Below, piece after piece: positions 1 to 55,652 of a stretch of 64,000 nucleotides of DNA. The notes under the pieces were generated by a model. That model had not been told where the DNA came from. It saw only the letters and a program-made list of their open reading frames with translations, and made no database searches. The position numbers and the translations under genes were made by a program. How positions within the stretch are numbered: position 1 is the first letter of the stretch; each line of letters begins with the position of its first letter. This stretch comes from an uncultured virus (IMG/VR IMGVR_UViG_3300025085_003231) (Duplodnaviria; Heunggongvirae; Uroviricota; Caudoviricetes), in IMG/VR virus record IMGVR_UViG_3300025085_003231, one strand, 5' to 3'.

Positions 1-2
1 GA

Positions 3-1679
3 AGTTATCCAGAACTTAAAAACCTTAGTGATGAGCAATTGTTGGCAAGAGGTATTGATTGTTTAGCCTTACAAACAGCCAATCGGGAATCTTTTGGTGC
101 GGAAGATATAATTTATGTTTCACCAAACGAAGGGATAGATATTGATGCCAAGATAGAAACCATCAAAAACACAGGTCAAAAAGTTGCCCGAATTGATTGG
201 TTTGCAACTCCTAAAGGAAATGGTTTTGGAAGGGCTGAGTTTGAGAACTTTAGGGATTGGGCCTACAAACAAGGTGCTGCATACATCGTGGTAGAGTCTG
301 TGCCAGAAAGTGTTAATTTTTGGAAATGGATGGGTTTTATAGAACCGTTTGGTCTTGTTGAACCAAAAGATGAGTTTTTGGCAACACACCTTGGATTAAA
401 TACTCTAATTTATCTTGCTGAATCGGAAGCGGAAGGCGGACAATTCGCTGCGGAAGATAACTATGATGCTACCTATGGTAAAGCCCAAGCCAAGATTCGC
501 AGGAAACTCAAAAACAAAATCAAGAAACAGGCGATAATGGGGACTAAGGCGGGTCAATGGTCGGCTCGTAAGTCCCAAGAATTGAAACGCCAATACGAGG
601 CTGCTTGTGATAAAAAAGGTTTGAGTCCATACAAGGGCAAGAAAACCAAATCGCAAGATAATCTTAGTAAATGGAGCAAACAAAAGTGGGGAACTGCTTC
701 AGGAAAGAAGTCATCTACTACTGGCGAACCATATTTCCCTGCTAAGGCAGTTGCGGCACTCAAAGACAAAGGATTATACTCCAAAGCCAAGCAACAAAAG
801 AAAGCCGCTACCAAGGCAGGAAAGCAGAACGCTCGGTATAGTGACGACATTCGTGCCGTAGTCAAAAACTATCGCTCCGAAACATATGAGGAAGCAACAG
901 GCGTAGAATTTTCTGAACAAAACCCTGAAAAGATTGAGGCAGACGCTCCACCCGATTGGAGAGAATCTATCATTACTATTCCACAATCAGATTCTTTTGG
1001 CTATGCTTTGTATCGCAAAATGTCAGACCTAACCTATAATCAGGTATGGAGGGTCTTAGAAATTATTGATGACCTAAATCGTATGAGTCATCACCATGCC
1101 CTAACCAAATTCAGTAGCAACTATGTAGAAATTTGGATTTACAGCCATGATAGCGGATTGGTTACGCCGAAAGATTATCACTGGGCCGAAGATTTTAATG
1201 ACATGATTGCTACGGTGGACTGGCAAATGTGGGAGTCCGAAACCGAATGGGATGATGTAGATTGGGAAAATGAAAAACCTGTCAAGCCCAAAAATGATTG
1301 GGGTGATGATATAGAGTGGGATGCTGAAGATGATTGGGGTTCGTTGCGTCCTGAAACTCGCCCAGAATTTCCTACCGTTGATGCTAAAATTGCCTCTATG
1401 CTGCGAAACCACTCTAAAGTAAATGTCAATGGTGAACAAGGATGTCCTCGTTGTGGTCATGAAGATTTATTCTATCGTGAATCCACAGGGACTGGAACTA
1501 AATGGTATTGCTATGGGTGTTTCTATACTGAAAAGACAGAATCTATGAAAAGTCAAAAGGTCATCACTTTAGAAAAATATGGTCTGAAGGTTCGGTGTCC
1601 TGATTGTAATGAAATGATTGTGGCTTATAATCAAGCCTCAGTTAATAGTCACCGTAGAAAATGTGGGGTGACTAAGTGA
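3..1679 (+). CDS. 5'-truncated multi-module (poly)protein: GNAT-like, DUF5872-like basic domain, PCD-like domain, two Zn-ribbons
   Basis: Frame is open from the window edge. PKGNGFGR..SVNFWKWMGF (GNAT); AGQWSARKSQ..SQDNLSKWSKQKWGT..GEPYFP (DUF5872-like); HHH..VEIWIYSHDSGLVTPKD (PCD-like); CPRC/CYGC and CPDC. Modules are separated by FGAE, FAAE, YRSE and WDAE. Confidence 0.7.
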   Translation, partial: SYPELKNLSDEQLLARGIDCLALQTANRESFGAEDIIYVSPNEGIDIDAKIETIKNTGQKVARIDWFATPKGNGFGRAEFENFRDWAYKQGAAYIVVESVPESVNFWKWMGFIEPFGLVEPKDEFLATHLGLNTLIYLAESEAEGGQFAAEDNYDATYGKAQAKIRRKLKNKIKKQAIMGTKAGQWSARKSQELKRQYEAACDKKGLSPYKGKKTKSQDNLSKWSKQKWGTASGKKSSTTGEPYFPAKAVAALKDKGLYSKAKQQKKAATKAGKQNARYSDDIRAVVKNYRSETYEEATGVEFSEQNPEKIEADAPPDWRESIITIPQSDSFGYALYRKMSDLTYNQVWRVLEIIDDLNRMSHHHALTKFSSNYVEIWIYSHDSGLVTPKDYHWAEDFNDMIATVDWQMWESETEWDDVDWENEKPVKPKNDWGDDIEWDAEDDWGSLRPETRPEFPTVDAKIASMLRNHSKVNVNGEQGCPRCGHEDLFYRESTGTGTKWYCYGCFYTEKTESMKSQKVITLEKYGLKVRCPDCNEMIVAYNQASVNSHRRKCGVTK

Positions 1680-2143
1680 ATATCATAAATTGGCTTAGAA
1701 AACCCGCACACCCACCATTATGGACTTTTGCACGAAGTTATCAGAACTTAGGTGAAGAGTTTTTTTATGCTCCATCTCGTGAACACGCCCAAGCAGAAAT
1801 TATACACCATATGAGAATGAATCATGGTGATGAGATAGGTGAATTGAGGTGGGAGCCTTTTGAAAGAGATGGATTAGTCAGTATGTTAAGTGAATACGAT
1901 AATAATAAATTGGTTGAAGGTTCGTGGGGCTACTTAAAATCAGTAAATAGCGATGTTAAAACTTTAAAAGAAATAATGGATAATTCTGTGCAACTCTCAG
2001 ACGAGGAGCAGGTAAAAAAACAAAACAGAGTTGAAGCATACCTGAAATATCTGGTCGGTAGTTCCACACGGGGATGGACCCCAGAATCCGACATTGGTTA
2101 TTATGGCTACGACCCCTCTAACAGAAATCCATTTGAAGAATAA
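1676..2143 (+). CDS. Hypothetical protein
   Basis: 155 aa ORF overlapping the upstream stop by 4 nt. Confidence 0.6.
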   Translation: MNIINWLRKPAHPPLWTFARSYQNLGEEFFYAPSREHAQAEIIHHMRMNHGDEIGELRWEPFERDGLVSMLSEYDNNKLVEGSWGYLKSVNSDVKTLKEIMDNSVQLSDEEQVKKQNRVEAYLKYLVGSSTRGWTPESDIGYYGYDPSNRNPFEE

Positions 2144-2150
2144 GGATTAG

Positions 2151-2157
2151 TTAAATA
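2151..2157 (+). promoter_or_regulatory. TATA box (TTAAATA) for DP2
   Basis: 22 nt before ATG 2180, the same spacing as at about 28 genes. Confidence 0.75.
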
Positions 2158-2179
2158 GGTGATGCGACTACTAAAAGGC

Positions 2180-5100
2180 ATGACTCAGTGGACGCATGAT
2201 GAATACATATCTCGTCTAAACGCTGACGCTGATGCCGCATACCTAATCGCTGATGCTGCCAGAGCCAAAGGATATGACCCACGAATCACTGTGGAAATAC
2301 CTCAAGCGTTTGATTTGGCAGACCGATGCCAGAAATTACTGGAATTTTTACACCCTCGCAGAACTGCTGAACAGATTCGTGCGCTAACTGAATCACACGA
2401 TGGAAACCGTGAAATGGTGGCTCTGGATATTGCTAAAATCGTTACTGCGGAATCATGGTTATATGGTATCAAAAATAAATGTGATTCTTGCGGTGGAGAA
2501 AAGGTCGTCAAAAAGGGAAGACGAACTGTGAGTTGCGATACTTGCGATGGAACGGGGATGATTCTGAACTACTCCGAAGATATTGAATTAGACTATGAAG
2601 AAACACTGCAAAAATTCTCTGATAATGAGCGAATCATCAAAGACGACACTTTCGGCGCATTGTGTATCTATCATGGTGTGTGTGCAGGATTAGCAGTTCT
2701 GACAGAAGGTATTCTGGTGGCTCCATTAGAAGGTGTGGTATCGTGTCGTATTGTCATGAATGAAGACCGCAGTAAATCATTAGCCATCAACTTTGCAGGG
2801 CCTATCCGAAGTGCAGGTGGAACAGGTCAAGCCTTGTCGGTGTTGATTGGAGATATTATCCGTCGTGAGTTCGGATTAGTCCCTCCTCAAATTACTTTTG
2901 AAGAGGCTGAAAGATACAAAGAAGAAGTCAGTAAATACGCTCGTGGTCTACAATACCGACCTTCTAACCCACAATTAGAGATTATTGCTTACAACTGTCC
3001 TGTATATATTGATGGTGAAGGTGTGGGTAATGAAGTCTCAGGGCAGCGTGACTTGCCTCGTGTTCCAACCAACAAGGTTCGGGAAGGGATGCTGCTGGTT
3101 ATGTGTGAGGGTCTGGTATTGAAAGCCCCCAAGATTTTGAAATACACGGAAGCATTGGGATTTGCCGAATGGGATTGGCTAAAGCAATTTACCAGCAAAG
3201 GAGATTCAGATGCTAAGAAAGCATCTATTGAACCTAACTACAAATTCTTGGCTGATATTTTAGCAGGTCGTCCTATTTTTTCTCGTCCTATGGCTCGTGG
3301 TGGTTTCCGACTACGATATGGTCGTAGCAGGTTAGCAGGGTTAGCCACTACTGCTATCCATCCAGCCTCTATGAGAGCCGTAGGTAGTTTCCTTATCGTC
3401 GGAACACAAATGAAATATGAGCGGCCTGGAAAGGCAACTGTGGTAACTCCTTGCGATACTATTGAAGGGCCATATGTAGAATTTACTGATGGTTCGGCTC
3501 GTCGCATACAAGAAATGGATGATTTAGAAGATGCTGTTCCCACAGAAGAAGAGTGGAATATCGCTCGTGTGTGGGATTTGGGAGAAATTCTGGTTCCTGT
3601 GGGTGAGTTCTTGGAAAATAACCATCCTTTAGCACCCAGCCCTTATGTTCACGAATGGCACGAGTTGATTGTTAGTAAAGAAGAACTTACTTATCCAGAA
3701 ACATTTTCTGAAGCATTAAATCAGTCCCAGAAATTTAATATCCCGATGGCTCCTGAGTATATTGCTCATTATAGTGACTTGCTCCCTGAAGAATTGCAGA
3801 CTCTTTTGCAAGGCATGACAATCACTGATGGTTCGGCGCAAGTGGAGCCAGATGTATTAGAAATCATTTATCGGCTCAACATTGATGTAGATGTTAATCG
3901 GTGTTTATCTGGGGACAAATCGGAGTTACTTTTGAATCTCTGGAATTCAAAATCTCAATTGGATTTTAAATCTGACTCGGACGGTTCAGCATTGGGAGTT
4001 ATCCGAAACTTTTACAATTTTCCAATTGAAAATCCCATTTCTATCCGTATTGGTGGACGAATGGGAAAGCCTGAAGGAAGCAAACTACGAGAAATGAAAC
4101 CTCCGATTCATTGCAACTTCCCTGTGGGCTTCAATGTAGGTAGTCAAAGGCTGCTACGAACTGCGGCAGACCAGCAAGAAGATGTAGAAACTGGGTGGCG
4201 TATGTGTGATGTTTGTGAGGAAGCAACTATCTGGGGCGTTTGTTGTGGTGCCGAAACTCGTTTCGTCGGATTGAAGTGGGATAAAGTGGGAATAAAAGAT
4301 TTGTATGAGTCTGCCTTGGAATCTGCGGCGATTGCTGATGGAAAAATCAAAGGTGTAAAAGGAATCACCAGTTCGGAGAAAATCCCTGAGCATCCTCTCA
4401 AGGGTGTGTTAAGATACAAGCATGGAATTTCCATGTTCCGAGATGGAACAATTCGTTTTGACATGGTGGACATTACCATGACTCACTTCCGACCCAGAGA
4501 AATTGGGATGACAGTGGAACAAGCGCAAGAATTAGGATATGACTGTTCAACTCTGGACGATGTTTTAGAGTTGAGACCGCAAGATGTGGTGTTGCCTAAG
4601 AATTGCTCAGAGAAAATTCTGGCTACGGCAAATTATATGGATGACTTGTTAGGCTCTATGTATGAATTGGAACCCTATTATAATTGTGATACCGTTAATG
4701 ACTTGATTGGACATTATGTGATGGGTATTGCCCCTCACACCAGCGGAGCAATCTTGGCACGAATTATTGGGTTTGCGGATGTGAAAGGACATTATGGACA
4801 TCATTACTATCACGCAGCCAAACGCCGTAATTGTGATGGAGACATTGACGCAGTATTATTGTTGCTGGATGGATTGATTAACTTTAGTAAAAAATTCTTG
4901 CCAGGACACCGAGGCGGGCAAATGGATGCACCTTTGATTTTAACTACCAAGATTGTGCCGTCCGAAATTGATAAAGAAGCCTTGAATGTAGAGATTGTAG
5001 ACCACTATCCGTTGGAGTTCTATGAATTAACTCAAGGCATTGAAGATGAAGACGGAGATTTGGTCCCACCACCTGCTAAAGCAGCCGTAGAAGCAGGAGT

Positions 5101-5707
5101 AACCATTGTGGAGTCGGTGTTAGGCACAGACTTGCAGTATGTCGGCCAGAAATTTACTCACGACACACGAGATTGCAGCGAAGGGCCAGCCAACAACCCT
5201 TACAACACTTTGGACTCTATGCGACAGAAAACCATGGCTCAATTTGCTTTAGGCGATTGCTTACAATCCGTAGATAACAAAGAACAGTCATCCCGATTGA
5301 TTCAACGACACCTAATTCGTGACATGAGGGGTAATCTCAGAGCCTATGGGCAACAAAAAGTCCGTTGTCCTAAGTGCGGAGGTAAATACCGCCGTCCACC
5401 CATTTCGGGACGCTGTATGACGATTTTGGAAACCAAGCAGAATCCATTTTCGGGCGAAACCGAGCAAATTTATTGTGACGGTAAAATTATCCTGACGGTA
5501 ACACATGGTTCAGTTGCTAAGTATGATAAACTCATGGCTGAATTAGTGAATCGCTACGGTGCTGATGATTATACCGAAGGATTGTATGAGCAAGTTAGTC
5601 GCTGGGTAAAAGATACTTTTGAAGATAAAAATATTCTGAGTCAATCAAAATTACCATTACCTGAGAGCGAATCAACCGAAGGTTCAAATAGCAGCAAAAC
5701 CAAATAA
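2180..5707 (+). CDS. polC: DNA polymerase D large subunit DP2
   Basis: TEGILVAPLEG, FAGPIRSAGGT, GGFRLRYGRSR, GTQMKYERPGK, IGGRMGKPE, FRDGTIRFD, catalytic AAKRRNCDGD, GGQMDAPL and a C-terminal CPKC Zn site. Start moved to ATG 2180 by promoter spacing. Confidence 0.97.
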   Translation: MTQWTHDEYISRLNADADAAYLIADAARAKGYDPRITVEIPQAFDLADRCQKLLEFLHPRRTAEQIRALTESHDGNREMVALDIAKIVTAESWLYGIKNKCDSCGGEKVVKKGRRTVSCDTCDGTGMILNYSEDIELDYEETLQKFSDNERIIKDDTFGALCIYHGVCAGLAVLTEGILVAPLEGVVSCRIVMNEDRSKSLAINFAGPIRSAGGTGQALSVLIGDIIRREFGLVPPQITFEEAERYKEEVSKYARGLQYRPSNPQLEIIAYNCPVYIDGEGVGNEVSGQRDLPRVPTNKVREGMLLVMCEGLVLKAPKILKYTEALGFAEWDWLKQFTSKGDSDAKKASIEPNYKFLADILAGRPIFSRPMARGGFRLRYGRSRLAGLATTAIHPASMRAVGSFLIVGTQMKYERPGKATVVTPCDTIEGPYVEFTDGSARRIQEMDDLEDAVPTEEEWNIARVWDLGEILVPVGEFLENNHPLAPSPYVHEWHELIVSKEELTYPETFSEALNQSQKFNIPMAPEYIAHYSDLLPEELQTLLQGMTITDGSAQVEPDVLEIIYRLNIDVDVNRCLSGDKSELLLNLWNSKSQLDFKSDSDGSALGVIRNFYNFPIENPISIRIGGRMGKPEGSKLREMKPPIHCNFPVGFNVGSQRLLRTAADQQEDVETGWRMCDVCEEATIWGVCCGAETRFVGLKWDKVGIKDLYESALESAAIADGKIKGVKGITSSEKIPEHPLKGVLRYKHGISMFRDGTIRFDMVDITMTHFRPREIGMTVEQAQELGYDCSTLDDVLELRPQDVVLPKNCSEKILATANYMDDLLGSMYELEPYYNCDTVNDLIGHYVMGIAPHTSGAILARIIGFADVKGHYGHHYYHAAKRRNCDGDIDAVLLLLDGLINFSKKFLPGHRGGQMDAPLILTTKIVPSEIDKEALNVEIVDHYPLEFYELTQGIEDEDGDLVPPPAKAAVEAGVTIVESVLGTDLQYVGQKFTHDTRDCSEGPANNPYNTLDSMRQKTMAQFALGDCLQSVDNKEQSSRLIQRHLIRDMRGNLRAYGQQKVRCPKCGGKYRRPPISGRCMTILETKQNPFSGETEQIYCDGKIILTVTHGSVAKYDKLMAELVNRYGADDYTEGLYEQVSRWVKDTFEDKNILSQSKLPLPESESTEGSNSSKTK
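5684..5690 (+). promoter_or_regulatory. TATA box (TCAAATA) inside the DP2 3' end
   Basis: GGTTCAAATAGCAGCA, 22 nt before ATG 5713. Confidence 0.7.
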
Positions 5708-5712
5708 ACACT

Positions 5713-5958
5713 ATGTCAGAATTTCCCGACGATATGGATGTCGGAAAAAACGATACACCTGATGTGGTAGAGGACATTACCATGCAAATGATGTTCTCAA
5801 AAATATCTGAGGTGTTGGAAATGAATGATTTGTTGCATTCCGAAATGACTGAAATCAAGAAAACCCTCAAAGCCATTGTAGAAGTTGCTAAAGCGGCTAC
5901 TGAAGAGAAAAAACCTGCGGCTTTCAAGGAAGATACCAATAATTCTATGTATGGTTAA
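5713..5958 (+). CDS. Small acidic helical protein ending in SMYG (HbYX-like)
   Basis: 81 aa with its own promoter; stop overlaps the convergent gene. Confidence 0.75.
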   Translation: MSEFPDDMDVGKNDTPDVVEDITMQMMFSKISEVLEMNDLLHSEMTEIKKTLKAIVEVAKAATEEKKPAAFKEDTNNSMYG

Positions 5959-6296
5959 TCCTGCATTAGTGGGGATTCTCGGACAGCATCTACCATCACT
6001 TGTAGTGGAGCGGTAGGAACTACTCGTATGTCTTCCATTTCTATCCCTACATTGGCTGCGGCACTGATAATACTTTCTATTGATTCAATAATCAGCCGAA
6101 TACCTTGACGATATGCCTCTAACTGCCTTTCAGCGGCTTGTCGCATCTCTTCTACATCTCCTAATATGTTCTCCAGACCTTGTTCGGTTGCACCAACCGC
6201 AGCACCCATAGCCTTTTTTAGCATTTGATTTTCCAATTCTAATCTTTCAATCTTGGCACTGGTCAATAACCAATTGATAGGAGCAGGGAGTGACAA
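5955..6296 (-). CDS. Hypothetical coiled-coil protein
   Basis: 113 aa with a heptad-like pattern; TTG start just after the upstream stop. Confidence 0.65.
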   Translation of the reverse strand: MSLPAPINWLLTSAKIERLELENQMLKKAMGAAVGATEQGLENILGDVEEMRQAAERQLEAYRQGIRLIIESIESIISAAANVGIEMEDIRVVPTAPLQVMVDAVRESPLMQD

Positions 6297-6298
6297 TT

Positions 6299-6550
6299 CT
6301 AAGCCTCCAGACCCAAACCTGACATTTCATCAATTACTTCTTCTGAAGGAGTGTTTTCCAAATAGAGGTTTTCATATTCTGAATTAGATGTTTTCTTCTC
6401 ATAAGCCATATCTGCACCACCCAATAGCAAAAGTGTTAAGCCAGCCGTAGAAACCGACGGGCTGCTGTTGTGGTAGTTAGTAAAAGACAAAATTCGCCCT
6501 GCTACTAACATGACGGCTCCGAGCCCAATGATTTTAGAACCATCTATCAT
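6299..6550 (-). CDS. Small membrane protein (2 hydrophobic segments)
   Basis: Promoter at 6573-6579; IIGLGAVMLVAG and AGLTLLLLGG. Confidence 0.75.
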   Translation of the reverse strand: MIDGSKIIGLGAVMLVAGRILSFTNYHNSSPSVSTAGLTLLLLGGADMAYEKKTSNSEYENLYLENTPSEEVIDEMSGLGLEA

Positions 6551-6583
6551 GGTTAATATGGGTCGCTACTGTTATTTAAGTTC

Positions 6584-6751
6584 TTACTCGTCTGCAACGG
6601 GTGGGTTTAACACAGCATCCGAAAGATGTGGCGTGATTTGTTCTAAAATACCGCTCACAATCAAAATAGCAGACCGACCTGCCAGATTGACATTATCCAG
6701 CAAATTGTAAAGAAACTCGCACTGTTCAGTGGTGAGTGTTACTTCGGGCAT
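6584..6751 (-). CDS. Small 55 aa protein absent from the ORF track (MPEVTLTTEQCEFLYNLLDN...)
   Basis: Read by hand; fills the gap; TTAAATA at 6774-6780 is 22 nt from the ATG. Confidence 0.75.
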   Translation of the reverse strand: MPEVTLTTEQCEFLYNLLDNVNLAGRSAILIVSGILEQITPHLSDAVLNPPVADE

Positions 6752-6786
6752 AGTTAATCACTAAGGTTCTACCTATTTAACCCTTA

Positions 6787-7479
6787 TCATTGTAGCAATC
6801 CGTAGGCTTGAAGTGCTACGATAATCTCTTCTATTGAGACTTGGACATTGTTTAAGTTTGCATCTGTGGTTCCAGCGAGACTGCCCAAAGATGTCGGGTC
6901 AGATGGACTCGGAGCATACGGGGTTGCGATTTGTTGAGCCACAGGGGTTGCTCCCATGAATCCTACTGTGCTGGAAGGGTCTACTCCGACTGAGAGATTA
7001 CCAGTGACTGTCAAAGTTGTGCCGTCAAAAGTTAAATTGGCTTCACCTTGTAGGGCGTTAGCACCAGTGACTGTGGAAATGGTATTGTTGGTGCTTCCTG
7101 AAAGAGTCACGCCTCCCGAACCGCTTGATGCGGCTGTTATTCTGCCTTGTGCATCCACGGTAATGTCAGCACTTGTGTAACTTCCTGCGGTAACGGCTGT
7201 ATTGGCTAAACTGATTGTTCCTGTGGTAGTGATTGGACCACCCGATAAACCTGTTCCTGTGGCGACCTCAGTAACTGTTCCTGAGCCACCTCCACCACCA
7301 GAAGAGGAAATTAAAACTGTGTTGCTGGAAGTTCCATTGAGAGTAATTCCTGTGCCAGCCACTAAGTTTAGCGTGGGGTCGGGAGTAATTGTGGTCTGTC
7401 CTGAAACAGTTCCACCATCAGCAGATGTCTTGATAGTGGGACTTCCTGCTCCACCTTGACCTGAATAGCCATTTGCCAT
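6787..7479 (-). CDS. Gly/Thr-rich fibre/spike protein
   Basis: GTVTEVATGTGLSGGPITTTGTISLANT..ITVDAQGRITAAS phage-fibre-type repeat; promoter at 7502-7508. Confidence 0.75.
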   Translation of the reverse strand: MANGYSGQGGAGSPTIKTSADGGTVSGQTTITPDPTLNLVAGTGITLNGTSSNTVLISSSGGGGGSGTVTEVATGTGLSGGPITTTGTISLANTAVTAGSYTSADITVDAQGRITAASSGSGGVTLSGSTNNTISTVTGANALQGEANLTFDGTTLTVTGNLSVGVDPSSTVGFMGATPVAQQIATPYAPSPSDPTSLGSLAGTTDANLNNVQVSIEEIIVALQAYGLLQ

Positions 7480-7522
7480 AATAAATATTAGGTGGTGCTG
7501 CTATTTGAATCTAATGATTGCT

Positions 7523-8311
7523 TCATTGATAAACTGGAATGAACATGGGTCCTAATCCGACATCAATTTCTAACCAACCTGCGGGATTCAAAGGACCGCC
7601 CGTAGGTGAATCGGGGAATACTGCGGCAACAGGTGGAGCGGCAGGTGGCGCAAAATTACCTATTTGCTGTGCATCAATATAATTTGCGTCATTGTTTAAT
7701 GTTGTAATATTGTCCCCTGCGGCCAATTTATTATTGAATGTAGTCCAATTTGCACTTGACAAATAACCATCAGCACCTCCGCTTGCTTGGGTGATACCGA
7801 TTGTTCCCGTTCCTGTGATAGTGCCTCCTGTAATCGGGGCTGATGTAGCAACCGAAGTAACTCCGCCTCCGCCTCCGCCCGAACCGTTTGAAGCAGCAGT
7901 TATTCTTCCTTGAGCATCAACCGTAATGTCGGCACTTGTATAATTACCTGCGGTAACTGCTGTGTTTGCTAAAGCCACAGTTCCAGAAGCGGTAATAGTC
8001 CCTCCACTTAATCCAGTTCCTGCGACAATTTGTGTAACCGTTCCTGCATTAGCCGTATATCCTGCATCATTGGCTAACAAAGATACGGGTTGTCCTGCTT
8101 GAATGGCTGAATCGGCTTTGACTCCTTGTGCAGCAGTGGCGAAATCTCCTGTGTTATCCTGAGCAGCCGTTCCTAATGTAATTCCTGAGAGTTGGTTCAA
8201 TTCTGCGGAAGTAGAAGTAACTGCTACATTGTTAAGAAATAATTTGCTGTTCCCAATTTTTACTTCGTCTGATGCCGTAGCATCATTAACACGAAATGGT
8301 TGTTCGGCCAT
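7523..8311 (-). CDS. Gly/Thr-rich fibre/spike protein
   Basis: Same ITVDAQGRITAAS block, plus FATAAQGVKADSA and GYLSSANWTTFNNK motifs; promoter at 8334-8340. Confidence 0.75.
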   Translation of the reverse strand: MAEQPFRVNDATASDEVKIGNSKLFLNNVAVTSTSAELNQLSGITLGTAAQDNTGDFATAAQGVKADSAIQAGQPVSLLANDAGYTANAGTVTQIVAGTGLSGGTITASGTVALANTAVTAGNYTSADITVDAQGRITAASNGSGGGGGGVTSVATSAPITGGTITGTGTIGITQASGGADGYLSSANWTTFNNKLAAGDNITTLNNDANYIDAQQIGNFAPPAAPPVAAVFPDSPTGGPLNPAGWLEIDVGLGPMFIPVYQ

Positions 8312-8346
8312 GGATAACTATTATGGCTGCTGCTATTTGAACCTTA

Positions 8347-9360
8347 TCAAGCAATAGTTTGTCGCATAAATCTGACAGTTAGACTATTACTTCCTGTGCG
8401 AGTAACTTGAACTGCGGGACTGGCAGCCGAAGTGACATTGACCGTAAATAGCGGTCCTGCGCCTGTGAAAACATCAGCGAATGGAACGAAAGAAGAACCA
8501 GCCCCGTCTGCCGCTACCACTAATTCAGTAGTCTGTGATTCTCCTGCGGTAGCATCAAAAGCCGTAATAACATATTTGGCTCCTTTGTAAGAACCTCCTG
8601 CAAAAGAGTCAATGGTGGTAGCAGAACCTGATGATACAGCAGTGGTGTTGCTCTTGAAACTTCCATAAACCGAACCTCCTGCACCGATTTGCAATAATTC
8701 GTTAGTGGTATCAATATTAAATGAGGCATCTACGGAGAATCCACCGCTACCATCTGATAGCAAAATATCTCCTGCGGCTCCAGGTGTTGAGGCTCCTGCA
8801 TCGGCAGCCCAAGTTACAGTTCCTGCGCCGTCAGTCTTTAGAACTTGATTAGCAGAACCATCTGTGACAGGCAGAGCAAACCCACCAACGGTAAAACTTG
8901 AGGCACCTGAATAATCCATGGCTCCTGAAACTGTTGAGCCTCCTGTTCCTGTTAAGGGTCCCGCTCCAGCAGACACACCGACACCAGAAATTTGTCCCGA
9001 TGCTGTAATAGTGGTGGCACCTGTGACTGCACCGCCTGTGATGTTGAGTTGTCCATCAGTAAGGCTTCCACCTGTGAGGGCTCCAGAAGCATTGACTGAA
9101 ACGGCATTTGTGATACTTCCTGCGTTGATGGTGAGTGTGCCATCAGTGAAACTACCTGCGGTGACCAATCCTGAAGCATTAACAGTAGTGGCTCCTGCAA
9201 TTGCACCTGCATTAACAAGACCTCCTGCACTTGCATCTAATCCAACACCAGTAATCAAACCAGTGGCTGTGATGGTGGTGGCTCCAGCGATTGCACCGCC
9301 CGAACCAATTGTGATTGTGCCGTCGGTGGCTTGGGTAAAGCGAAACGCTTGTTGTGCCAT
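8347..9360 (-). CDS. Fibre/spike protein with ITGATTITASG-type repeats and a C-terminal beta domain
   Basis: Repeats plus IDSF..YKGAKYVI..QTTEL; promoter at 9383-9389. Confidence 0.75.
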   Translation of the reverse strand: MAQQAFRFTQATDGTITIGSGGAIAGATTITATGLITGVGLDASAGGLVNAGAIAGATTVNASGLVTAGSFTDGTLTINAGSITNAVSVNASGALTGGSLTDGQLNITGGAVTGATTITASGQISGVGVSAGAGPLTGTGGSTVSGAMDYSGASSFTVGGFALPVTDGSANQVLKTDGAGTVTWAADAGASTPGAAGDILLSDGSGGFSVDASFNIDTTNELLQIGAGGSVYGSFKSNTTAVSSGSATTIDSFAGGSYKGAKYVITAFDATAGESQTTELVVAADGAGSSFVPFADVFTGAGPLFTVNVTSAASPAVQVTRTGSNSLTVRFMRQTIA

Positions 9361-9395
9361 ACCCTACTATTCTGGTTTTTGCTATTTAAATTTGT

Positions 9396-10055
9396 CTAAC
9401 TTAACAACGACCGAATTACTTTAACGGTGTGATTATTAGCAGAGCCTGGAGTGAATTGCAAGACAAAATTAGCCCCAGAAATTACACCATTAAAACTTCC
9501 TAACGGTGCATCACTAAAGATGGTGCCATATTCTACTACATATCCTGTGGTTCCATCGTGAACGCCCAATAATTCTGAGGTCTGATATTCTCCTGCGGTA
9601 GTGTCTGCTACTTGAATAATGTATTTTACTGAGCGATAACTGCCAAAACCCCACGAATCTATGTTGGAAACTGCGGCTCCCGTAGTGGTTTGAGAACGAG
9701 TGGTGAGATTCATATCATTGATAGACAGACTTCCAGAACCTGTGAGGCTTAAAATGTTGCTGGTGGCATCAAAAGAAAATTCATTTTTGCCGCCGATAGT
9801 ATCTAATGCTGTGGCGTAGGCTACTTGCGTGGGTTGAATAGTCCCTCCGATTGAGCCGCCACCACCTCCGCCTCCAGAAGACTGAATGGTGATGGTATTT
9901 GGGTCACTTCCTGTTAAGGTGATATTAGACCCAGCGACTAAGTTAATTTCTTGGGAGCCATCTAAAGTTGTATCTCCTGCAACAGCACCAGCACCTGCTG
10001 ATAAATTGATTTGAGGCCGCCCTGCAAACCCTGTCCCAGAAAACTTTTCAGCCAT
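9396..10055 (-). CDS. Fibre/spike protein
   Basis: N-terminus like 6787..7479; C-terminal IDSW..YRSVKYIIQ..YQTSELLGVHDGT like 8347..9360. Confidence 0.75.
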   Translation of the reverse strand: MAEKFSGTGFAGRPQINLSAGAGAVAGDTTLDGSQEINLVAGSNITLTGSDPNTITIQSSGGGGGGGSIGGTIQPTQVAYATALDTIGGKNEFSFDATSNILSLTGSGSLSINDMNLTTRSQTTTGAAVSNIDSWGFGSYRSVKYIIQVADTTAGEYQTSELLGVHDGTTGYVVEYGTIFSDAPLGSFNGVISGANFVLQFTPGSANNHTVKVIRSLLS

Positions 10056-10072
10056 AATGGGTCACCATACTA

Positions 10073-11017
10073 TCAGACACCGCCCTCTAAGGCTTGTCGT
10101 CCAGTATCAGTGAATCCTGTTTGTTGCTCAGACCATCCAACGAACACTGCTTGAACATTGCCTGTAAGGGTATCTACACCTGCAACTGCACCAGTGTTGA
10201 TAACACGGAATACAACTTGCTTTTCTACCACCAGTGGAATTTCAAACTTCCATTGGTCGGATTGAGGAACAACTACGCTCCATTGGAAATCGTCCCATTC
10301 AAAAAGTAGTTCTCCGTCTACCCAGATTTGATACCTAACGGTTGATGCGCCATTAGTAGTGGGTTCTGTGTGTCCAAAGCGAGAAACTAAATATAGTTCA
10401 TTCTTACGACCTGCTTCAGTGGCCGTGGAAGTTCCTGTGGTGGTAATTCCTGTGAACAATCCACCGCCGCTACGAGCCCCAGAAGGAGTTCCTACGGAGT
10501 TCGGAGTAAAGACCTGACCACCAACTGAAGTGGATGCGGTAGACGGAAAGGTTGGAACGGTAGAATCGGGAAGAGCGGATGCTGCGGGTGAGCCGCTGAC
10601 CCAACTTTGAGTTCCCAAGACACGAGCATCATTGACATTGATAACCACTGCATCAATATATTCTCCAGCATCTAAAAATCCACCTGCTAATCCTGTGAGA
10701 GAAACCACTTGGCGTTGAATAACATTCGCAGAATTGCTTTTAGGAACCAAATGCCACGGATAATTCTCTGAATTGACATTGTTAGGGTGCAACATCAGAT
10801 TTTCCATAGCGGGGCGAACTGGACGCTTATAGGTTGAAGGGTCAATTCCAACTCGCTGCGGAGAAGTAGCAACCGAAGTTTCGGTGCTGTATGAAGAATA
10901 AGGAACAGGAGTTGAATTAACTGCATCGCCCTTCTGTGAATATCCTGTTTGGAAAGCCTTCTTACGGTAGGCTCGTTTGAGCCCACGGATGTTATCGTTG
11001 GTATCTCCTGACGGCAT
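10073..11017 (-). CDS. Putative virion structural protein with a beta-rich C-terminal domain
   Basis: Alternating beta pattern (VRYQIWVDGE, PLVVEKQVVFRVIN, VQAVFVGW); GGTGAT RBS; promoter at 11052-11058. Confidence 0.55.
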   Translation of the reverse strand: MPSGDTNDNIRGLKRAYRKKAFQTGYSQKGDAVNSTPVPYSSYSTETSVATSPQRVGIDPSTYKRPVRPAMENLMLHPNNVNSENYPWHLVPKSNSANVIQRQVVSLTGLAGGFLDAGEYIDAVVINVNDARVLGTQSWVSGSPAASALPDSTVPTFPSTASTSVGGQVFTPNSVGTPSGARSGGGLFTGITTTGTSTATEAGRKNELYLVSRFGHTEPTTNGASTVRYQIWVDGELLFEWDDFQWSVVVPQSDQWKFEIPLVVEKQVVFRVINTGAVAGVDTLTGNVQAVFVGWSEQQTGFTDTGRQALEGGV

Positions 11018-11031
11018 GAAATCACCTATAA

Positions 11032-11754
11032 TTACTTTTGGTCCTTCCTGTTATTTAAGGTTAAGCCAAGTTTGGGAGCCATTTTTTGTGCTTCCCTTTG
11101 TTCTTTCCAATATTGAGCGGATGTGGCTAAATACCACTCCCAAGAACTGGTGTCTAATCCCCGACTCAATAATAGTTGTCTACGGAACCACTCTACATTA
11201 TCTACACTTACTTCAATACCCAGCGATAGCAATTGTTCACAAATCAAAGCATCAGAACCTGAAAAAGTCCAATATTGAACAAAAACCTGTGCCGCAGGTC
11301 GGGAAAGAGCCCAAGTTCCTGTGGGATATTCATTAAGTATAACATATCTGACATCCCAAGTTTGAAAGGGCCTCACATACACATCAGGTTTCAGCAAATA
11401 ACCATAATTAGAGGTTAAATCTTTAGGAAATGACGATGAATCTCCTGAAACGCCCCAAGATTTGATATTTTCGGGATTCTGATAATAATGTGTGGTGTTG
11501 ATTACTATCTGAACAAAGCCATTGGGTCTCCATTGCTCAATATTTCCCAGAGTTACTACGGGTGCGGCTGAAATTCCTGGGGTGCTTCCAAAATCGTCTA
11601 TCACAACGAAATGGTCTTCTCTCACCATCGCTGTTTCCGTAATATTGTTACCATATCCGCTGGTAAAGATAGAAAATTGGTTCGCAGGATTGGGTAGATT
11701 ACTTCCATCTGCCGCAGGAATTAGTTCCCACAAGTATATTTGTTTGCGAATCAT
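11032..11754 (-). CDS. Minor capsid-like paralog
   Basis: RKQIYLW, IFTSGYGNNITE, INTTHYYQNPE, PDVYVRPFQTW and GSDALI match 27858/28553; TGATG coupling. Confidence 0.7.
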   Translation of the reverse strand: MIRKQIYLWELIPAADGSNLPNPANQFSIFTSGYGNNITETAMVREDHFVVIDDFGSTPGISAAPVVTLGNIEQWRPNGFVQIVINTTHYYQNPENIKSWGVSGDSSSFPKDLTSNYGYLLKPDVYVRPFQTWDVRYVILNEYPTGTWALSRPAAQVFVQYWTFSGSDALICEQLLSLGIEVSVDNVEWFRRQLLLSRGLDTSSWEWYLATSAQYWKEQREAQKMAPKLGLTLNNRKDQK

Positions 11755-12524
11755 CAACTTAACCTCCTTGGAACTTCTTCTAAAGCCTGTTCGTATTCGT
11801 TTCTTTCAGAAATATCAGCCATCAATTTGTTGCGAATTATCATTCTTTTGTGCGCCTGAACTGTCTTGACATTAACAGGGATGTTCTGAGACATTAAAAA
11901 ATTGGCTATCAGTGCATCAGAACCATCAAATAAAACATACTCCAGATAAACACGAGGAATCCAAATATCTCCATCCTCGTCGTCAATGGCGGTGGTGACG
12001 GAATAATCCCAACTTCGGGTAGTTACACCAGAAGTTTGCCTATCATATGCTACTTGAGTCTGTTGCAATTGATTGATTGAATAATATACACCCCAAGTTT
12101 GGCCTGGGATTACATACATTGGAGTATCACTGAGATAAAAAGATGGGCTAATTGATTGAGGCCCATAGCGTAATCCTGGGGACGGGCCATAGGGTGAAGC
12201 ATTACCTGAAATTCCAGGGCCTACTACATTATCAGGCTGTTGAAAATACTGGGTGGTTTCTACCCAAATATTAGCACTGGCAGGAGGAGGCCATAATGAG
12301 AGTTCATCAATAACAATAAATTGAGTCGCTTTAACATAGCCAGGAATGTCTAAATTATTGCCCAATCCTCCGACAAAAATGTCTACTTGGGCATTAGCAT
12401 TAGTTCCCCACGCAGGAATCGCAGGAGATAAAGTCAAAATTGGGTCTTGGTTAAGAACATATGGTGTCGGGTAGGTAGTAGAGGGAATCAAACCTCTCCA
12501 CTCATAAGCCTGACGACGCATCAT
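11754..12524 (-). CDS. Minor capsid-like paralog
   Basis: RRQAYEW, IFVGGLGNN, TQYFQQPD, YVIPGQTW, FDGSDALIAN; promoter at 12547-12553. Confidence 0.7.
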   Translation of the reverse strand: MMRRQAYEWRGLIPSTTYPTPYVLNQDPILTLSPAIPAWGTNANAQVDIFVGGLGNNLDIPGYVKATQFIVIDELSLWPPPASANIWVETTQYFQQPDNVVGPGISGNASPYGPSPGLRYGPQSISPSFYLSDTPMYVIPGQTWGVYYSINQLQQTQVAYDRQTSGVTTRSWDYSVTTAIDDEDGDIWIPRVYLEYVLFDGSDALIANFLMSQNIPVNVKTVQAHKRMIIRNKLMADISERNEYEQALEEVPRRLS

Positions 12525-14907: not shown

Positions 14908-16053
14908 TCACTCGTATTCTCTCAGGACTTTTCCTCGGGCTTCACGGGGTTTTCCACCATTAGTCCAACCTGTATGTTCTACTGTGAGTGGGGCTCGTCG
15001 GGCTACGATAGCATCTCTTTCCGCCCACAATCTATAATTATATTCACGAGTTCCATTCATAGCCACATTAAATCGTTCTCCTGCTTCGTTTTCACAAATC
15101 CAAATTGGAGTTCCTGCCGCAGTTCCCTGCCCCTCAGTATATCCTACAATTGGAAATTCAGTATCTTCATAACGCTTGACCTTCATTAAGTCTGATGACT
15201 TACCATTGAGTTTATAGACAGAATTTAGGTTGCGAACCATGCCGCCCTCATAACCCTCTTCTACAAACTGGTCGGTATAGGTTTCCACATCTTCATAATT
15301 ATTGATTGGGTAATTTTCTACAAAACGAACCCGAGTGCGTCTGGACGCAGGAACTTGATTAAGAATACGAACCATCAAGCGATACCGATTAGCAAAAGTC
15401 ATATCCAGATTGTCCAAATCTATCAAATCATAGACTCGTAATTTCATGTATTGCAATGCTTGAATATCACTTTCGGATAAATTTTCTGGGTTTTTACGGA
15501 CTAATCCGCTGGCTCTTTCAAATTCCACATCATCAGGTTCCGCATATAATTCACCGTCCAAAATAATGTTGCTGGGCAAATTAAGATTCATAATGTCTTC
15601 TCGGATAGCGTTCATTCCTGGGAATAGTTTATTCTTTCTTGACATTAGAATTACTTGTCCAACAGTAGGCGTAGAGGCCAAACATCTAACGCCATCAAAT
15701 TTTCTTTGTATGGCGGCGGGGAATTGGGTCCAGCGTCGGCCACCTACGGAAAACTTTTTTGCCAACATGGGAAGCACCACAGTTTGATTTCGGGCTCCTG
15801 CCATAGAGACCACATATCCTCGGTCCATTTTCTTGAGCCATTCTGAACGAGCCTCTAACTCAGCCTGTTCTAAAACGGTGCGTCCTTGATTACCTGCTGC
15901 TATGATGGTAGGGACTCCTGTAATTATGGTTCCTCCTACTTGTCCATAACGAGTGTTAATTGAGTAAGTTGAATCGCCATTAGAAGTAACTGAGATAGTC
16001 CATTCTCGCAAATTATTGTTGGAGTCGGTCTTGTATAGCGTGTCAAAAGGCAT
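14908..16053 (-). CDS. lig: ATP-dependent DNA ligase (viral type, WGR-like N-terminus)
   Basis: PMLAK, motif I KFDG, ILDGELY, VYDL, EGYEGGMVR, LMKVK and an OB domain. Start at ATG 16053 by promoter spacing (16076-16082). Confidence 0.93.
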   Translation of the reverse strand: MPFDTLYKTDSNNNLREWTISVTSNGDSTYSINTRYGQVGGTIITGVPTIIAAGNQGRTVLEQAELEARSEWLKKMDRGYVVSMAGARNQTVVLPMLAKKFSVGGRRWTQFPAAIQRKFDGVRCLASTPTVGQVILMSRKNKLFPGMNAIREDIMNLNLPSNIILDGELYAEPDDVEFERASGLVRKNPENLSESDIQALQYMKLRVYDLIDLDNLDMTFANRYRLMVRILNQVPASRRTRVRFVENYPINNYEDVETYTDQFVEEGYEGGMVRNLNSVYKLNGKSSDLMKVKRYEDTEFPIVGYTEGQGTAAGTPIWICENEAGERFNVAMNGTREYNYRLWAERDAIVARRAPLTVEHTGWTNGGKPREARGKVLREYE

Positions 16054-16083
16054 AGTTATCTCTCCGTGTGTCACCTATTTAAC

Positions 16084-20417: not shown

Positions 20418-20449
20418 AATAATAGTTAGGGCGTTTTGCTATTTAAGTT

Positions 20450-22982: not shown

Positions 22983-24341
22983 TCAACCATAGAGGTTGTC
23001 CGTGGTTTCAGTAATGCCTCGTTCCTTTTTAGACATCTTTCTTTGATTCAGCAGGATTTCCAAGGCTTGTTCCATGTGGGTCTGAAGAATTTTAGTTTTG
23101 GATTCATCAAAATCAGAATCTTCAAAAGCCAGCATGAAAGCATTTTGAACTAACTCTTGGAGATACGCTCCAGAAAAATTATCTGTGCGCTTGACAATCT
23201 GCTTCAAGTTAATTTTGGCTTGGAAAGGTTCTAAATACTTTTCCAAAATCTCCTTGCGGGCTTCTGGTTTTGGATAACCGAACTCAATTCTGCTATCAAA
23301 CCTTCCAGGTCTGTCGGCCAAAGCCCAATCCAAATGTTGGGGATAGTTAGTTGTGGCTAAGGTGATAACTCCTGTGTTGCGTTCTACACCCGAAAGAGCA
23401 TTCAAAAATTCTCCGAGTAGTGGGTGGTCGTGAACTTCTCGGCGGTCTAATCCTCCGAGTGTGTCAATATCTTCAATAATAACCAGCGTGGGTGCTAAAT
23501 GGCGAGCCATTTTATAGAGTCGTGTGATTTGTCCTTCTTGTTTGATAGCATCTCGGGAGGCGTAAATGGTGGTAATATTGGTATTATTCATGACCACATT
23601 ACAGCACAAGGTTTTTCCTGTTCCTGGTGGGCCTGAAATCAAAACACCACGGGATGCACGAAGATTTTTAGCACGATAAACTTCCATGTGTGGGACAAAG
23701 TTAATGATGTGTCGGTTTAACAATTCTGTGGAGTCATCATCTACGATAATGTCTTGCCATCCAGCACCTGGAACATCTAAGAAACGGAAATCTGCGGTGA
23801 ATTTAGAGCCTTTCAATAGACCTTTTGTGTTGAAGTGAAGTTGCACTTTATCCCACAATTCTGTGTAGCGGTTTCCGTATTTTTGGTTGGTTTCAAAGTA
23901 GAATTTAATATCAATTTCATACTGGTCATAAGGCCAAAAAGAAACCACCAGTGGGTGTGAATCTTCTCGGTGTTGCAAAAAGAGAGAGAGTTTGTAAGGA
24001 ATCTTAAATTTTTCTCCGTTAAAGACTTCTTCGTTCCAAATAGGAGGAGTTTCAGCATTCCCATATTTGTGATTTTCTACCTTAATGGTTTCATACTCTT
24101 CTTCTAAAATCTGCATCAAGGAATACGCCCACATGATATATTCTCTTCCAGAATAGTCTCGGTGTTTGACTTCTAAGTTGTTGATGTCTGTTTGGAAAAA
24201 ATCAGAAATAGAGGCATCCATCTGGTCGGTCTTTTCAATTGAGTCGCTAAGATACTGCAACATATCTTTGAGTGGTTCAGTGGGTATTGAAATAGGTCCC
24301 ATTGGGGAAGTGATTTCAAGATTTGTAGGCATTGCGGTCAT
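22983..24341 (-). CDS. Classical AAA ATPase (FtsH/CDC48/PAN-like domain) ending in LYG
   Basis: GPPGTGKT, IIEDID, TTNYP..LD.AL.DRPGRFD, FSGA. Start at ATG 24341 by promoter spacing. Confidence 0.9.
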   Translation of the reverse strand: MTAMPTNLEITSPMGPISIPTEPLKDMLQYLSDSIEKTDQMDASISDFFQTDINNLEVKHRDYSGREYIMWAYSLMQILEEEYETIKVENHKYGNAETPPIWNEEVFNGEKFKIPYKLSLFLQHREDSHPLVVSFWPYDQYEIDIKFYFETNQKYGNRYTELWDKVQLHFNTKGLLKGSKFTADFRFLDVPGAGWQDIIVDDDSTELLNRHIINFVPHMEVYRAKNLRASRGVLISGPPGTGKTLCCNVVMNNTNITTIYASRDAIKQEGQITRLYKMARHLAPTLVIIEDIDTLGGLDRREVHDHPLLGEFLNALSGVERNTGVITLATTNYPQHLDWALADRPGRFDSRIEFGYPKPEARKEILEKYLEPFQAKINLKQIVKRTDNFSGAYLQELVQNAFMLAFEDSDFDESKTKILQTHMEQALEILLNQRKMSKKERGITETTDNLYG

Positions 24342-24371
24342 ACAGTTAAGTTGTGACATTACCTATATGAA

Positions 24372-28508: not shown

Positions 28509-28552
28509 AATAATCACTTTCCATAGTTAGTTTTCCCAAAGGAACCCCGAAC

Positions 28553-37309: not shown

Positions 37310-37313
37310 AAAA

Positions 37314-55615: not shown

Positions 55616-55652
55616 GAACTTAATTGGGTCTTGCTGCTATTTAAAAGTTGTC

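Follow-up and report, generated by a model that had tools for sequence, protein, structure and literature searches.

Whether any virus encodes a family D DNA polymerase (PolD) of its own is the question raised by a gene at positions 2180 to 5707 of a 64,000-nucleotide stretch of DNA from an uncultured virus (IMG/VR record IMGVR_UViG_3300025085_003231), the whole of which is here called the window. To our knowledge, surveys of viral replication describe family A, B, C and protein-primed polymerases, not family D. PolD is the main replicase of most archaea, as stated in excerpts of PMC7544198, and abstracts describe the enzyme as archaea-specific or exclusive to Archaea. An initial annotation of the window, made from the sequence alone, had assigned the gene to the large PolD subunit, DP2, and had called a viral PolD unusual. 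That judgement has held: a full-text literature search, with supplementary tables outside its reach, found no report of a virus-encoded PolD or DP2, and DP2 was found in none of the GenBank phage and archaeal-virus records (0/50,697). In this study, we report that the gene is a complete DP2, and that it is probably the catalytic subunit of a virus-encoded PolD and belongs to the core genes of large linear double-stranded DNA (dsDNA) genomes that make up a widespread marine family. A PolD gene conserved in the core of large, linear, virus-like seawater genomes is new with respect to the literature searched.

Integrity of the DP2 gene

The DP2 gene and the features within and before it are as follows (PIP, PCNA-interacting protein).

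2151-2159, + strand: promoter-like motif TTAAATAGG, TATA-like, 20 nt before the DP2 ATG (match to TYAAATARS)
2180-5707, + strand: DP2, large catalytic subunit of family D DNA polymerase (three Pfam DP2 domains, 6hms_B match, synteny)
4832-4849, + strand: active-site motif CDGDID, with Ile for the cellular Glu and the three Asp kept (translation)
5642-5662, + strand: degenerate PIP-like motif QSKLPLP near the C-terminus, with an acidic Ser-rich tail after it (translation)

The DP2 frame is open in the window from GTG 2159 to 5707 (+ strand), and its product from ATG 2180 is 1175 amino acids (aa) long. All three Pfam DP2 domains were found in this one chain, namely the N-terminal (PF03833, E 3.6e-78), the central (PF24844, E 1.8e-90) and the catalytic domain (PF24846, E 1.4e-110), and the DP2 of Pyrococcus abyssi (6hms_B) was aligned in five stretches across the whole of the window DP2 (E 4.4e-207). 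The gene is thereby confirmed as a complete DP2, as the initial annotation had read it, with an intact CDGD.

The motif CDGDID aligns with NCDGDED of P. abyssi DP2. Its three Asp (D893, D895 and D897) were invariant in 19/19 aligned relatives, as were the motif as a whole and two clusters of four cysteines (Cys4), C108/C111/C126/C129 and C1070/C1073/C1086/C1106. The roles of the individual Asp in the N-C-D-G-D-x-D motif, located in the second double-psi beta-barrel, come from structural work on PolD. The Cys4 clusters of DP2 bind zinc and the C-terminal one touches the partner subunit DP1, according to excerpts of PMC7544198. The window DP2 ends in QSKLPLPESESTEGSNSSKTK (translation of 5642-5707), where no canonical PIP box was found, the ending QSKLPLPESE... 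being without aromatic residues.

Promoter motif and start codon

The motif TYAAATARS was found in 25 copies in the window compared with 6.6 expected, and 25 copies were reached in none of 100 shuffles (0/100). Nearly all copies (23/25) were located within the 60 nt before an ATG with which an open reading frame (ORF) of at least 50 aa begins, and in 16/25 the spacing to the ATG was exactly 20 nt. Because the copy at 2151-2159 sits exactly 20 nt before it, ATG 2180 is the best start for DP2; the same spacing supports both the start and the element's own promoter motif given in the initial annotation. Further sites were noted at 5684-5692 (+), 7500-7508 (-), 20438-20446 (-) and 55636-55644 (-), and the 20-nt spacing improves on the longest-ORF starts of several other genes (the ligase at 16053, and the ORFs at 26300 and 27036).

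A TATA-like box at such a distance from the ATG is typical of archaeal leaderless transcripts, and the fixed distance across the element implies leaderless transcripts here. GGAGG-like sequences often precede the ATG of internal genes in the leftward block of the window. The TATA-like spacing together with these GGAGG-like sequences points to a prokaryotic, archaeal-type host, and the family would use archaeal-type TATA-like promoters fixed 20 nt before its start codons.

Contiguity of DP2 with its neighbours

Two ORFs precede DP2 and a small one follows it.

3-2143, + strand: two upstream ORFs, 3-1679 (open at the 5' end) and 1676-2143 (contigs bridge 695-3478)
5713-5958, + strand: small ORF of 81 aa immediately after DP2 (own promoter motif at 5684-5692)

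The DP2 gene could be a cellular chromosomal gene brought beside viral genes by an assembly chimera or a provirus boundary, an explanation to which we give very little credence. The window starts just 2.1 kb left of DP2, the ORF to the left of DP2 has homologs elsewhere in related genomes (those of 3-1679 lie near the genome end in G002, G003 and G004, three of the four relatives described below), and another relative, G001, is labelled a provirus by IMG/VR. Against this, contigs of four independent studies bridge both flanks of the gene at similar depth. Up to 0.94 of the sampled words from positions 1-8000 were present in marine metagenome runs from several studies, and contigs of four runs (X1, X2, X3 and X13), one from each of the four studies, were mapped over the window start. 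The junction of the upstream ORFs with DP2 was spanned by 695-3478 in X1 and X2, with 0 differences in both, and by 695-3034 in X3, while the 3' junction was spanned by 4108-6044 (X1) and 5330-12000 (X3). A single X13 contig of 27,766 bp covers 1-11737 except for the short diverged or replaced stretches 96-444, 7148-7217 and 7661-7864, none of which falls at either DP2 junction, and runs 14.8 kb further left of position 1. Depth was level across the DP2 region, at about 47, 50, 9 and 36 in the four runs. Because the contigs bridge both junctions and the X13 contig extends leftwards, DP2 is genuinely contiguous with the genes on either side, and the genome reaches beyond the left end of the window. 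The check for chimerism suggested by the initial annotation thus gave no chimera over the DP2 region.

Related genomes and position of DP2

Relatives were found in IMG/VR by an alignment-based scan; a single-protein scan gave none. Four records (G001 to G004, 123-166 kb) carry DP2 at 56-59% identity, with the matches in syntenic position at 56-58%. IMG/VR classes all four as viral and flags G003 and G004 as bearing inverted terminal repeats (ITRs), which are 3,460 bp long and 99.45% identical in G004 and a 99-nt exact repeat in G003. The G004 ITRs (L089:1-3460 and L097) were observed to hold five ORFs of 91-190 aa in duplicate, none of which matches a family.

Profile scans of the window covered 62 ORFs with Pfam and 61 with PHROGs, and 71 window ORFs were used for synteny. 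Of these 71, 48 match G004 (54.7-108 kb) in the same order and 42 match G003 (110-51.5 kb, inverted) colinearly, which supports a virus-like context rather than a chromosome or a chimera. Genes of the window run rightward to the left of 5958 and leftward from 5955 through the window end, and in the relatives DP2 consistently marks the edge of the leftward block, at a distance of 24.7-55 kb from one end. This constant place beside the morphogenesis module in four other records is hard to reconcile with a chromosomal origin of the gene. The window would represent the central part of a larger genome from a family with ITRs, in which related contigs are 123-166 kb and contigs that carry the capsid-like gene reach ~200 kb, and DP2 would end a rightward replication and repair arm that converges on a long leftward morphogenesis module.

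In eight-gene identity matrices G003 and G004 were the closest pair in 8/8 genes (DP2 71%, ATPase 69%, capsid-like 75-80%, others 50-66%), and the remaining pairs were roughly equidistant. DP2 diverges together with the genes of the virion module, which also speaks against a chromosomal copy. Because its divergence tracks the rest of the module, DP2 has been inherited vertically within the family.

DP2 homologs number in the thousands, and the best 120 clusters are 54-99% identical. The longest contigs of the DP2 clusters are 130-180 kb, and many marine data sets contain related contigs. One tRNA each was found in the two relatives that look complete, G004 (tRNA-Pro(GGG), L095:6957-7034) and G003 (tRNA-Ala(TGC), L102:312-385), and none in the window; Rfam at its gathering score gave no match, and so no ribosomal RNA, in the window and the first 80 kb of G004, which speaks against a cellular sequence.

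Relationship to cellular DP2

A tree of 138 rows was built from 97 cellular DP2s shorter than 1300 aa and 41 virus-type DP2s; it left out intein-bearing frames of at least 1300 aa and loci without an open frame of at least 900 aa holding CDGD, which were mostly contig-end cuts. The cellular DP2s were taken from among the matches listed, a sample without Nitrososphaeria, Asgard archaea, Thermoproteota and most Methanobacteriota. Of the virus-type sequences, 33/41 came from clusters at 54-60% identity, and full length is kept in these. FastTree placed cellular and virus-type DP2s on opposite sides of one branch (Shimodaira-Hasegawa (SH)-like support 100, stem length 0.90). IQ-TREE under LG+C20 with 56 rows gave the same split (SH approximate likelihood-ratio test, SH-aLRT, 100; stem 1.14), with the viral stem joining between the Thermoplasmatota set and the rest. 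The stem was not nested in any sampled phylum, the flanking FastTree supports being 28 and 16.

The DP2 phylogeny that had been proposed as a check thus unites the virus-type DP2s in a single long-stemmed clade, which excludes every one of the 97 sampled cellular DP2s and has an active-site signature of its own. Together with the colinearity of the window with the four IMG/VR records, this contradicts the case that the initial annotation had named as damaging to it, a chromosomal copy at a provirus boundary.

The best identities of cellular DP2s, by phylum in the genome collection, where MAG stands for metagenome-assembled genome, were as follows.

Phylum of a Thermoplasmata MAG (G006), 401 genomes: 47%
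Phylum of a 'Woesearchaeota' MAG (G005), 151 genomes: 41%
Phylum of G008, 81 genomes: 46%

An assignment of the G008 phylum to Thermoproteota, after the title 'Bathyarchaeia' at NCBI, was tried and dropped, as its DP2s group with Archaeoglobi and Methanomicrobia. As a separate observation, L064/G008 is a 'Candidatus Bathyarchaeia' MAG in a collection phylum whose DP2s cluster with Archaeoglobi, Methanomicrobia and Methanotrichaceae, so that title and grouping disagree.

The motif CDGDID was present in 41/41 virus-type DP2s, and among the 97 cellular DP2s there were 93 with CDGDED, 1 with CDGDAD and 3 unmatched by the search pattern. The substitution pointed out at 4832-4849 in the initial annotation is therefore real, but it is a signature of the clade and not peculiar to the window copy. 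The C-terminal endings were distributed as follows.

Canonical PIP box in the last 20 residues: cellular 59/97 (81/97 if Q, K or N is allowed first), virus-type 0/41
Short Qxx[LIVMF][FW] ending: cellular 2/97, virus-type 25/41
QxxLxxF ending: cellular 58/97, virus-type 4/41
Neither short form: virus-type 12/41, including the window and its two closest relatives

The degenerate PIP-like motif QSKLPLP, also pointed out earlier, was seen as described, yet it is limited to the sublineage of the window, since 25/41 virus-type DP2s end in Q-x-x-L-[F/W]. The altered C-terminal clamp-binding motif and the change of Glu to Ile beside the catalytic Asp residues would be clade-specific adaptations.

Virus-type DP2s also occur under NCBI MAG labels as diverse as Thorarchaeota, Flavobacteriaceae, Woesearchaeota and Bacteroidetes (clusters of P0023, P0027 and P0102). 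The 'Woesearchaeota' MAG G005 (L107/L108) holds a 5.4-kb contig with a virus-type DP2 at 59% identity and a separate DP2 at 35-41%. Such contigs in assorted MAGs are probably mobile contigs that have been mis-binned, and they could mislead surveys of the distribution of PolD.

Proposed replication partners

The absence of DP1 from the window, noted at the outset, was borne out: the DP1 family (PF04042) was not found among the 62 scanned ORFs, and tblastn with the DP1 of a related element was also empty in the window. In the relatives DP1 was detected by Pfam in G002 and G004 and by tblastn in G002 (62%), G003 (79%) and G004, the G003 copy having been missed by Pfam. The distance between DP1 and DP2 in the relatives is ~38-90 kb, with the G004 DP1 at 145.6 kb. 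The lack of DP1 in the window is explained by the extent of the window, since DP1 in the relatives falls outside the stretch that it covers; by synteny, a DP1 of the window's genome would lie beyond the right end. The G004 DP1 carries DIH, GDVVD, GNHD and GHTHAH, which we take to be the motifs of Mre11-type phosphoesterases.

A search for DP1, PCNA, MCM and primase had been recommended, and in the relatives it succeeded in part. DP1 was found in 3/4 and a PCNA_N match in 4/4 (3 over the cut-off), but the MCM model of Pfam, which matches 3/4 relatives, also matches all 14 control genomes and is uninformative, and DNA_primase_S gave weak matches in 3/4, 1 of them over the cut-off. Profile searches for DNA_pol_B and DNA_pol_A found neither in the relatives (0/4 each). 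G004 also codes for TBP, TFIIB, a ligase, a 5'-3' exonuclease (flap-endonuclease-like), a class II ribonucleotide reductase and a dCMP deaminase, and for a repair and modification set of an ERCC4 nuclease, a Holliday-junction resolvase, UvdE, Fpg, four C5 methyltransferases and an XPD-like helicase.

From these partners we infer that the window DP2 would be active as a DP1-dependent polymerase: it would pair with the element's own DP1 proofreading subunit and own PCNA, both coded outside the window in the relatives, and DP1, DP2 and PCNA would copy the element genome independently of the host replicase. A captured DP2 that no longer acts as a replicase, being inactive or serving repair or interference with replication of the host, whose polymerase would then copy the element, would account for the change of Glu to Ile in the catalytic motif, the loss of the canonical C-terminal PIP box and the lack of DP1 in the window. 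We consider this very improbable, as the three Asp and both Cys4 clusters are invariant across the clade, full length is kept in clusters at 54-60% identity, the G004 DP1 retains the four presumed phosphoesterase motifs, PCNA is present in 4/4 relatives and an alternative polymerase was found in 0/4.

Capsid-like genes and putative packaging ATPase

Three genes of the leftward block are candidates for a virion module.

27858-28517, - strand: jelly-roll capsid-like protein, paralog a, 219 aa (homolog clusters, 50% identity to paralog b)
28553-29209, - strand: jelly-roll capsid-like protein, paralog b, 218 aa (AlphaFold2 model, match to the capsid protein of Sulfolobus polyhedral virus 1, SPV1)
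47272-48510, - strand: HerA/FtsK-superfamily ATPase, putative genome-packaging ATPase (phrog_2666 1.7e-13; 57-61% identity to all four relatives)

Paralogs a and b are adjacent and 50% identical to each other, and they are among the most conserved genes of the family, at 59-77% identity to the relatives compared with 23-58% for most others. At E<=1e-5, paralog a has 1643 homolog clusters, whose contigs reach 201,303 bp, and the best 120 of the 1643 are at 60-98% identity; paralog b has 248 representatives at E<=0.001, and its nearest Atlas clusters are 'Viruses 100%'. The AlphaFold2 model of paralog b (predicted local distance difference test, pLDDT, 92.4; predicted TM-score, pTM, 0.86) consists of a jelly roll followed by two helices. 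Its best solved match by Foldseek was the SPV1 capsid protein (6oj0_A, E 1.2e-3, prob 0.99). The same protein led a VIA-align search of ~48,000 chains (6oj0_T, root-mean-square deviation 2.9 over 128 residues), with a Z of 8.6 that is barely above the unremarkable range of the tool, the next entry having Z 6.0; lower in the list were HHIV-2 (5.7), P23-77 VP17 (5.2) and HCIV-1 (5.1).

A heteromer of a and b was predicted with weak support, at an ipSAE of 0.56 (runs 0.49, 0.56 and 0.72) compared with 0.00 for the best control; the runs share at least 80% of contacts, and the partner pLDDT was at least 81. The mark used was passed by 116/157 solved complexes and 2/215 mismatched pairs, and scores of 0.60 or below include 18/157 and both of the passing mismatches. 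The ATPase agrees with the FtsK/HerA packaging type at superfamily level only, its matches in the PDB being DUF87 (8yho, 1.1e-8) and HerA (4d2i, 5.7e-6).

To the left of these genes lies a block with fibre-like domains.

5955-10055, - strand: variable block with tail-fibre-like and baseplate-like domains (phrog_38058 2.4e-6, phrog_2885 3.2e-7)

This block converges on the DP2 unit, and homologs were found in G004 only; judged from its domains, it probably serves host recognition. At window positions 6800-8000 the contigs of all four runs were observed to break or diverge (6.9-7.9 kb), and the summed depth changes from ~18 to ~108, which looks like a hot spot of strain-level diversity in the tail-fibre-like, probable host-recognition genes. 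The two paralogs and their structural matches, together with the HerA/FtsK ATPase and the fibre-like variable genes, support, with moderate confidence, a capsid module of the type 'two single jelly-roll proteins plus packaging ATPase'.

In the main rival to a virus, the element is not viral but replicates outside the chromosome of some uncultured marine archaeon, for example as a giant linear plasmid or a Borg-like element, with its own PolD and with the jelly-roll proteins and the HerA/FtsK ATPase in a non-capsid role. Neither a portal nor a terminase nuclease, an HK97 or a double jelly-roll hallmark emerged from profile searches; the jelly-roll domain is also known from fibres, lectins and numerous cellular proteins; HerA/FtsK ATPases act in conjugation and defence too; and the a/b heteromer, at ipSAE 0.56, is only weakly predicted. 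Long ITRs with duplicated genes, such as those of G004, are found also on linear plasmids and Borgs. We nevertheless judge a non-viral element unlikely. Two independent aligners gave the capsid protein of an archaeal virus as the best solved match, and tandem, highly conserved paralogs of 50% identity are the pattern of viruses with two capsid proteins. The tail-fibre-like variable genes with their strain-level breaks, the viral class of all four relatives in IMG/VR and the Atlas neighbours of paralog b likewise argue for a virus, whose genome would be encapsidated by these products.

Other genes of the window

The Pfam curated cut-off was reached by only 6/62 scanned ORFs of the window: DP2, an ATP-dependent ligase, an AAA+ ATPase, two family-2 glycosyltransferases and an AAA-lid domain in a 1429-aa protein. 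PHROGs gave tail-fibre-like and baseplate-like matches at 6787-10055 and a 'terminase large subunit' match for the HerA/FtsK ATPase at 47272-48510. The scarcity of Pfam matches and these PHROGs matches agree with the earlier description of DP2 as flanked by virus-like genes. Further features of the leftward block are listed below.

11032-12524, - strand: tandem pair of diverged paralogs of the capsid-like genes, 11032-11757 and 11754-12524 (G001 matches, alignment)
14908-16074, - strand: ATP-dependent DNA ligase, with a likely start at ATG 16053 by the 20-nt spacing (PF01068 2.5e-23, phrog_114 3.6e-67)
22983-24359, - strand: AAA+ ATPase, kept in all four relatives (PF00004 6e-22; 37-48% identity to G001-G004)

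Two G001 proteins are common to both pairs, matching the 11032-12524 pair at 36%/32% and the capsid-like pair at 61%/59%, and 11032-11757 is 37% identical to 27858-28517. The 394-aa ORF 48559-49743, which adjoins the HerA/FtsK ATPase, has 19 homolog clusters and a poor structure model (pLDDT 48.1). As in the window, a small ORF is kept next to DP2 in G002 and G004.

In the upstream ORF, window 39-1679 (+) is 86% identical to L096:11891-14662 of G004 over 279 aa of a 923-aa SOD_Cu/DUF5872 (Cu/Zn-superoxide-dismutase) protein, which far exceeds the 23-58% of most shared genes. The match suggests a recent domain exchange or a rearranged terminal arm. At 36596-39218 (-), a GAAGAACCT triplet repeat was observed at the 3' end of a 634-aa ORF, just upstream of the next gene, where it codes for a short Glu/Pro-rich tail.

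Host, counter-evidence and significance

The TFIIB of G004 had its best identity, 55%, in the G006 phylum (193/201 genomes at E<=1e-62) and 53% in the G008 phylum (100/151 at E<=1e-90), with no match (0/151 at E<=1e-90) in the DPANN-type phylum of G005. This does not discriminate between hosts and disfavours the DPANN-type phylum only. The promoter architecture points to a probable archaeal host.

Several points weigh against a virus-encoded PolD as we propose it. DP1 was not found in G001 by tblastn, and neither DP1 nor PCNA turned up in the 64 kb that the window covers of its own genome, so that their partnership with DP2 there is deduced from the relatives. CheckV completeness of the four related records is 53-65%, and one of them, as mentioned, bears a provirus label. 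A closer cellular relative of the viral DP2s may exist outside the sampled groups, and the long viral stem could reflect fast viral evolution and not an ancient split. The jelly-roll fold is a common one, and a search of viral predicted structures (BFVD) with paralog b gave generic jelly-roll matches, with SPV1 VP4 at rank 10. Finally, among the window ORFs scanned neither Pfam nor PHROGs recognised a portal, a canonical terminase or a capsid protein of HK97 or double jelly-roll type; divergent forms may escape profiles.

A broader proposal is offered tentatively, as a possibility that we regard as less than even. The PolD elements may constitute an undescribed, globally abundant and high-rank lineage of marine archaeal viruses, with genomes of ~150-200 kb, long ITRs, capsids of two single jelly-roll proteins, a self-sufficient replisome of archaeal type (DP1, DP2, PCNA and ligase) together with TBP and TFIIB, and a PolD branch that lies outside cellular diversity and is not a recent capture. 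If this is true, PolD has a long independent history in the virosphere, which bears on viruses as reservoirs or donors of replicative polymerases. A virus family with DP1, DP2 and PCNA as core genes and no other polymerase detected would add the last missing major cellular family to the viral replicases. The clade also offers natural PolD variants for biochemistry, in its CDGDID active site and its clamp-binding tail. The 1643 capsid-like clusters and the many marine data sets suggest that a large group of archaeal viruses in the ocean has gone unrecognised, and such a group would explain the DP2 genes mis-binned into bacterial and assorted archaeal MAGs.

Comparison with known systems

The window DP2 resembles that of cellular PolD (P. 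abyssi 6hms and 6t8h; Thermococcus kodakarensis 6knb) in its three-domain architecture, Asp triad and Cys4 clusters. Cellular PolD works with DP1 and PCNA, and the relatives of the element likewise code for both. In contrast to cellular PolD, the element's DP2 is located on a virus-like linear genome, has CDGDID in place of CDGDED and a PIP box that is shortened or lost, shares no more than 47% identity with any sampled cellular DP2 and belongs to a separate clade on a long stem.

The magroviruses (viruses of Poseidoniales, Magrovirales) are abundant marine archaeal viruses of ~100 kb that encode a nearly full set of replication proteins themselves, and excerpts of PMC5434244 describe them as head-tailed, with an HK97-type capsid protein, portal, terminase and family B polymerase; in the same excerpts, all that magrovirus group C has of PolD is a homolog of the DP1 exonuclease subunit. 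The present family differs from them in that DP2 is present, family B polymerase was found in 0/4 relatives and no caudoviral hallmark was detected in the window.

SPV1 (Portogloboviridae) and Halopanivirales (HHIV-2, HCIV-1 and P23-77) are viruses of archaea and bacteria whose capsids use two single jelly-roll proteins. The element is similar to them in having two adjacent paralogs of predicted jelly-roll fold, with SPV1 as the best fold match. Halopanivirales have a HerA/FtsK-type ATPase, as does the element of the window. Its genome is five to eight times larger than those of SPV1 and Halopanivirales, from which the family also differs in being linear with long ITRs, in its marine mesophilic habitat, and in having its own replisome and TBP with TFIIB.

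Borgs, like the present family, are big linear elements of archaea that end in long inverted repeats and whose genes mostly lack annotation; they are far larger and are tied to Methanoperedens in soils and sediments. We know of no Borg that carries PolD. In the available part of the preprint of PMC12660748 (10.1101/2024.11.05.622173), the string 'DP2' occurs in grant numbers only. Unlike Borgs, the present family has capsid-like genes.

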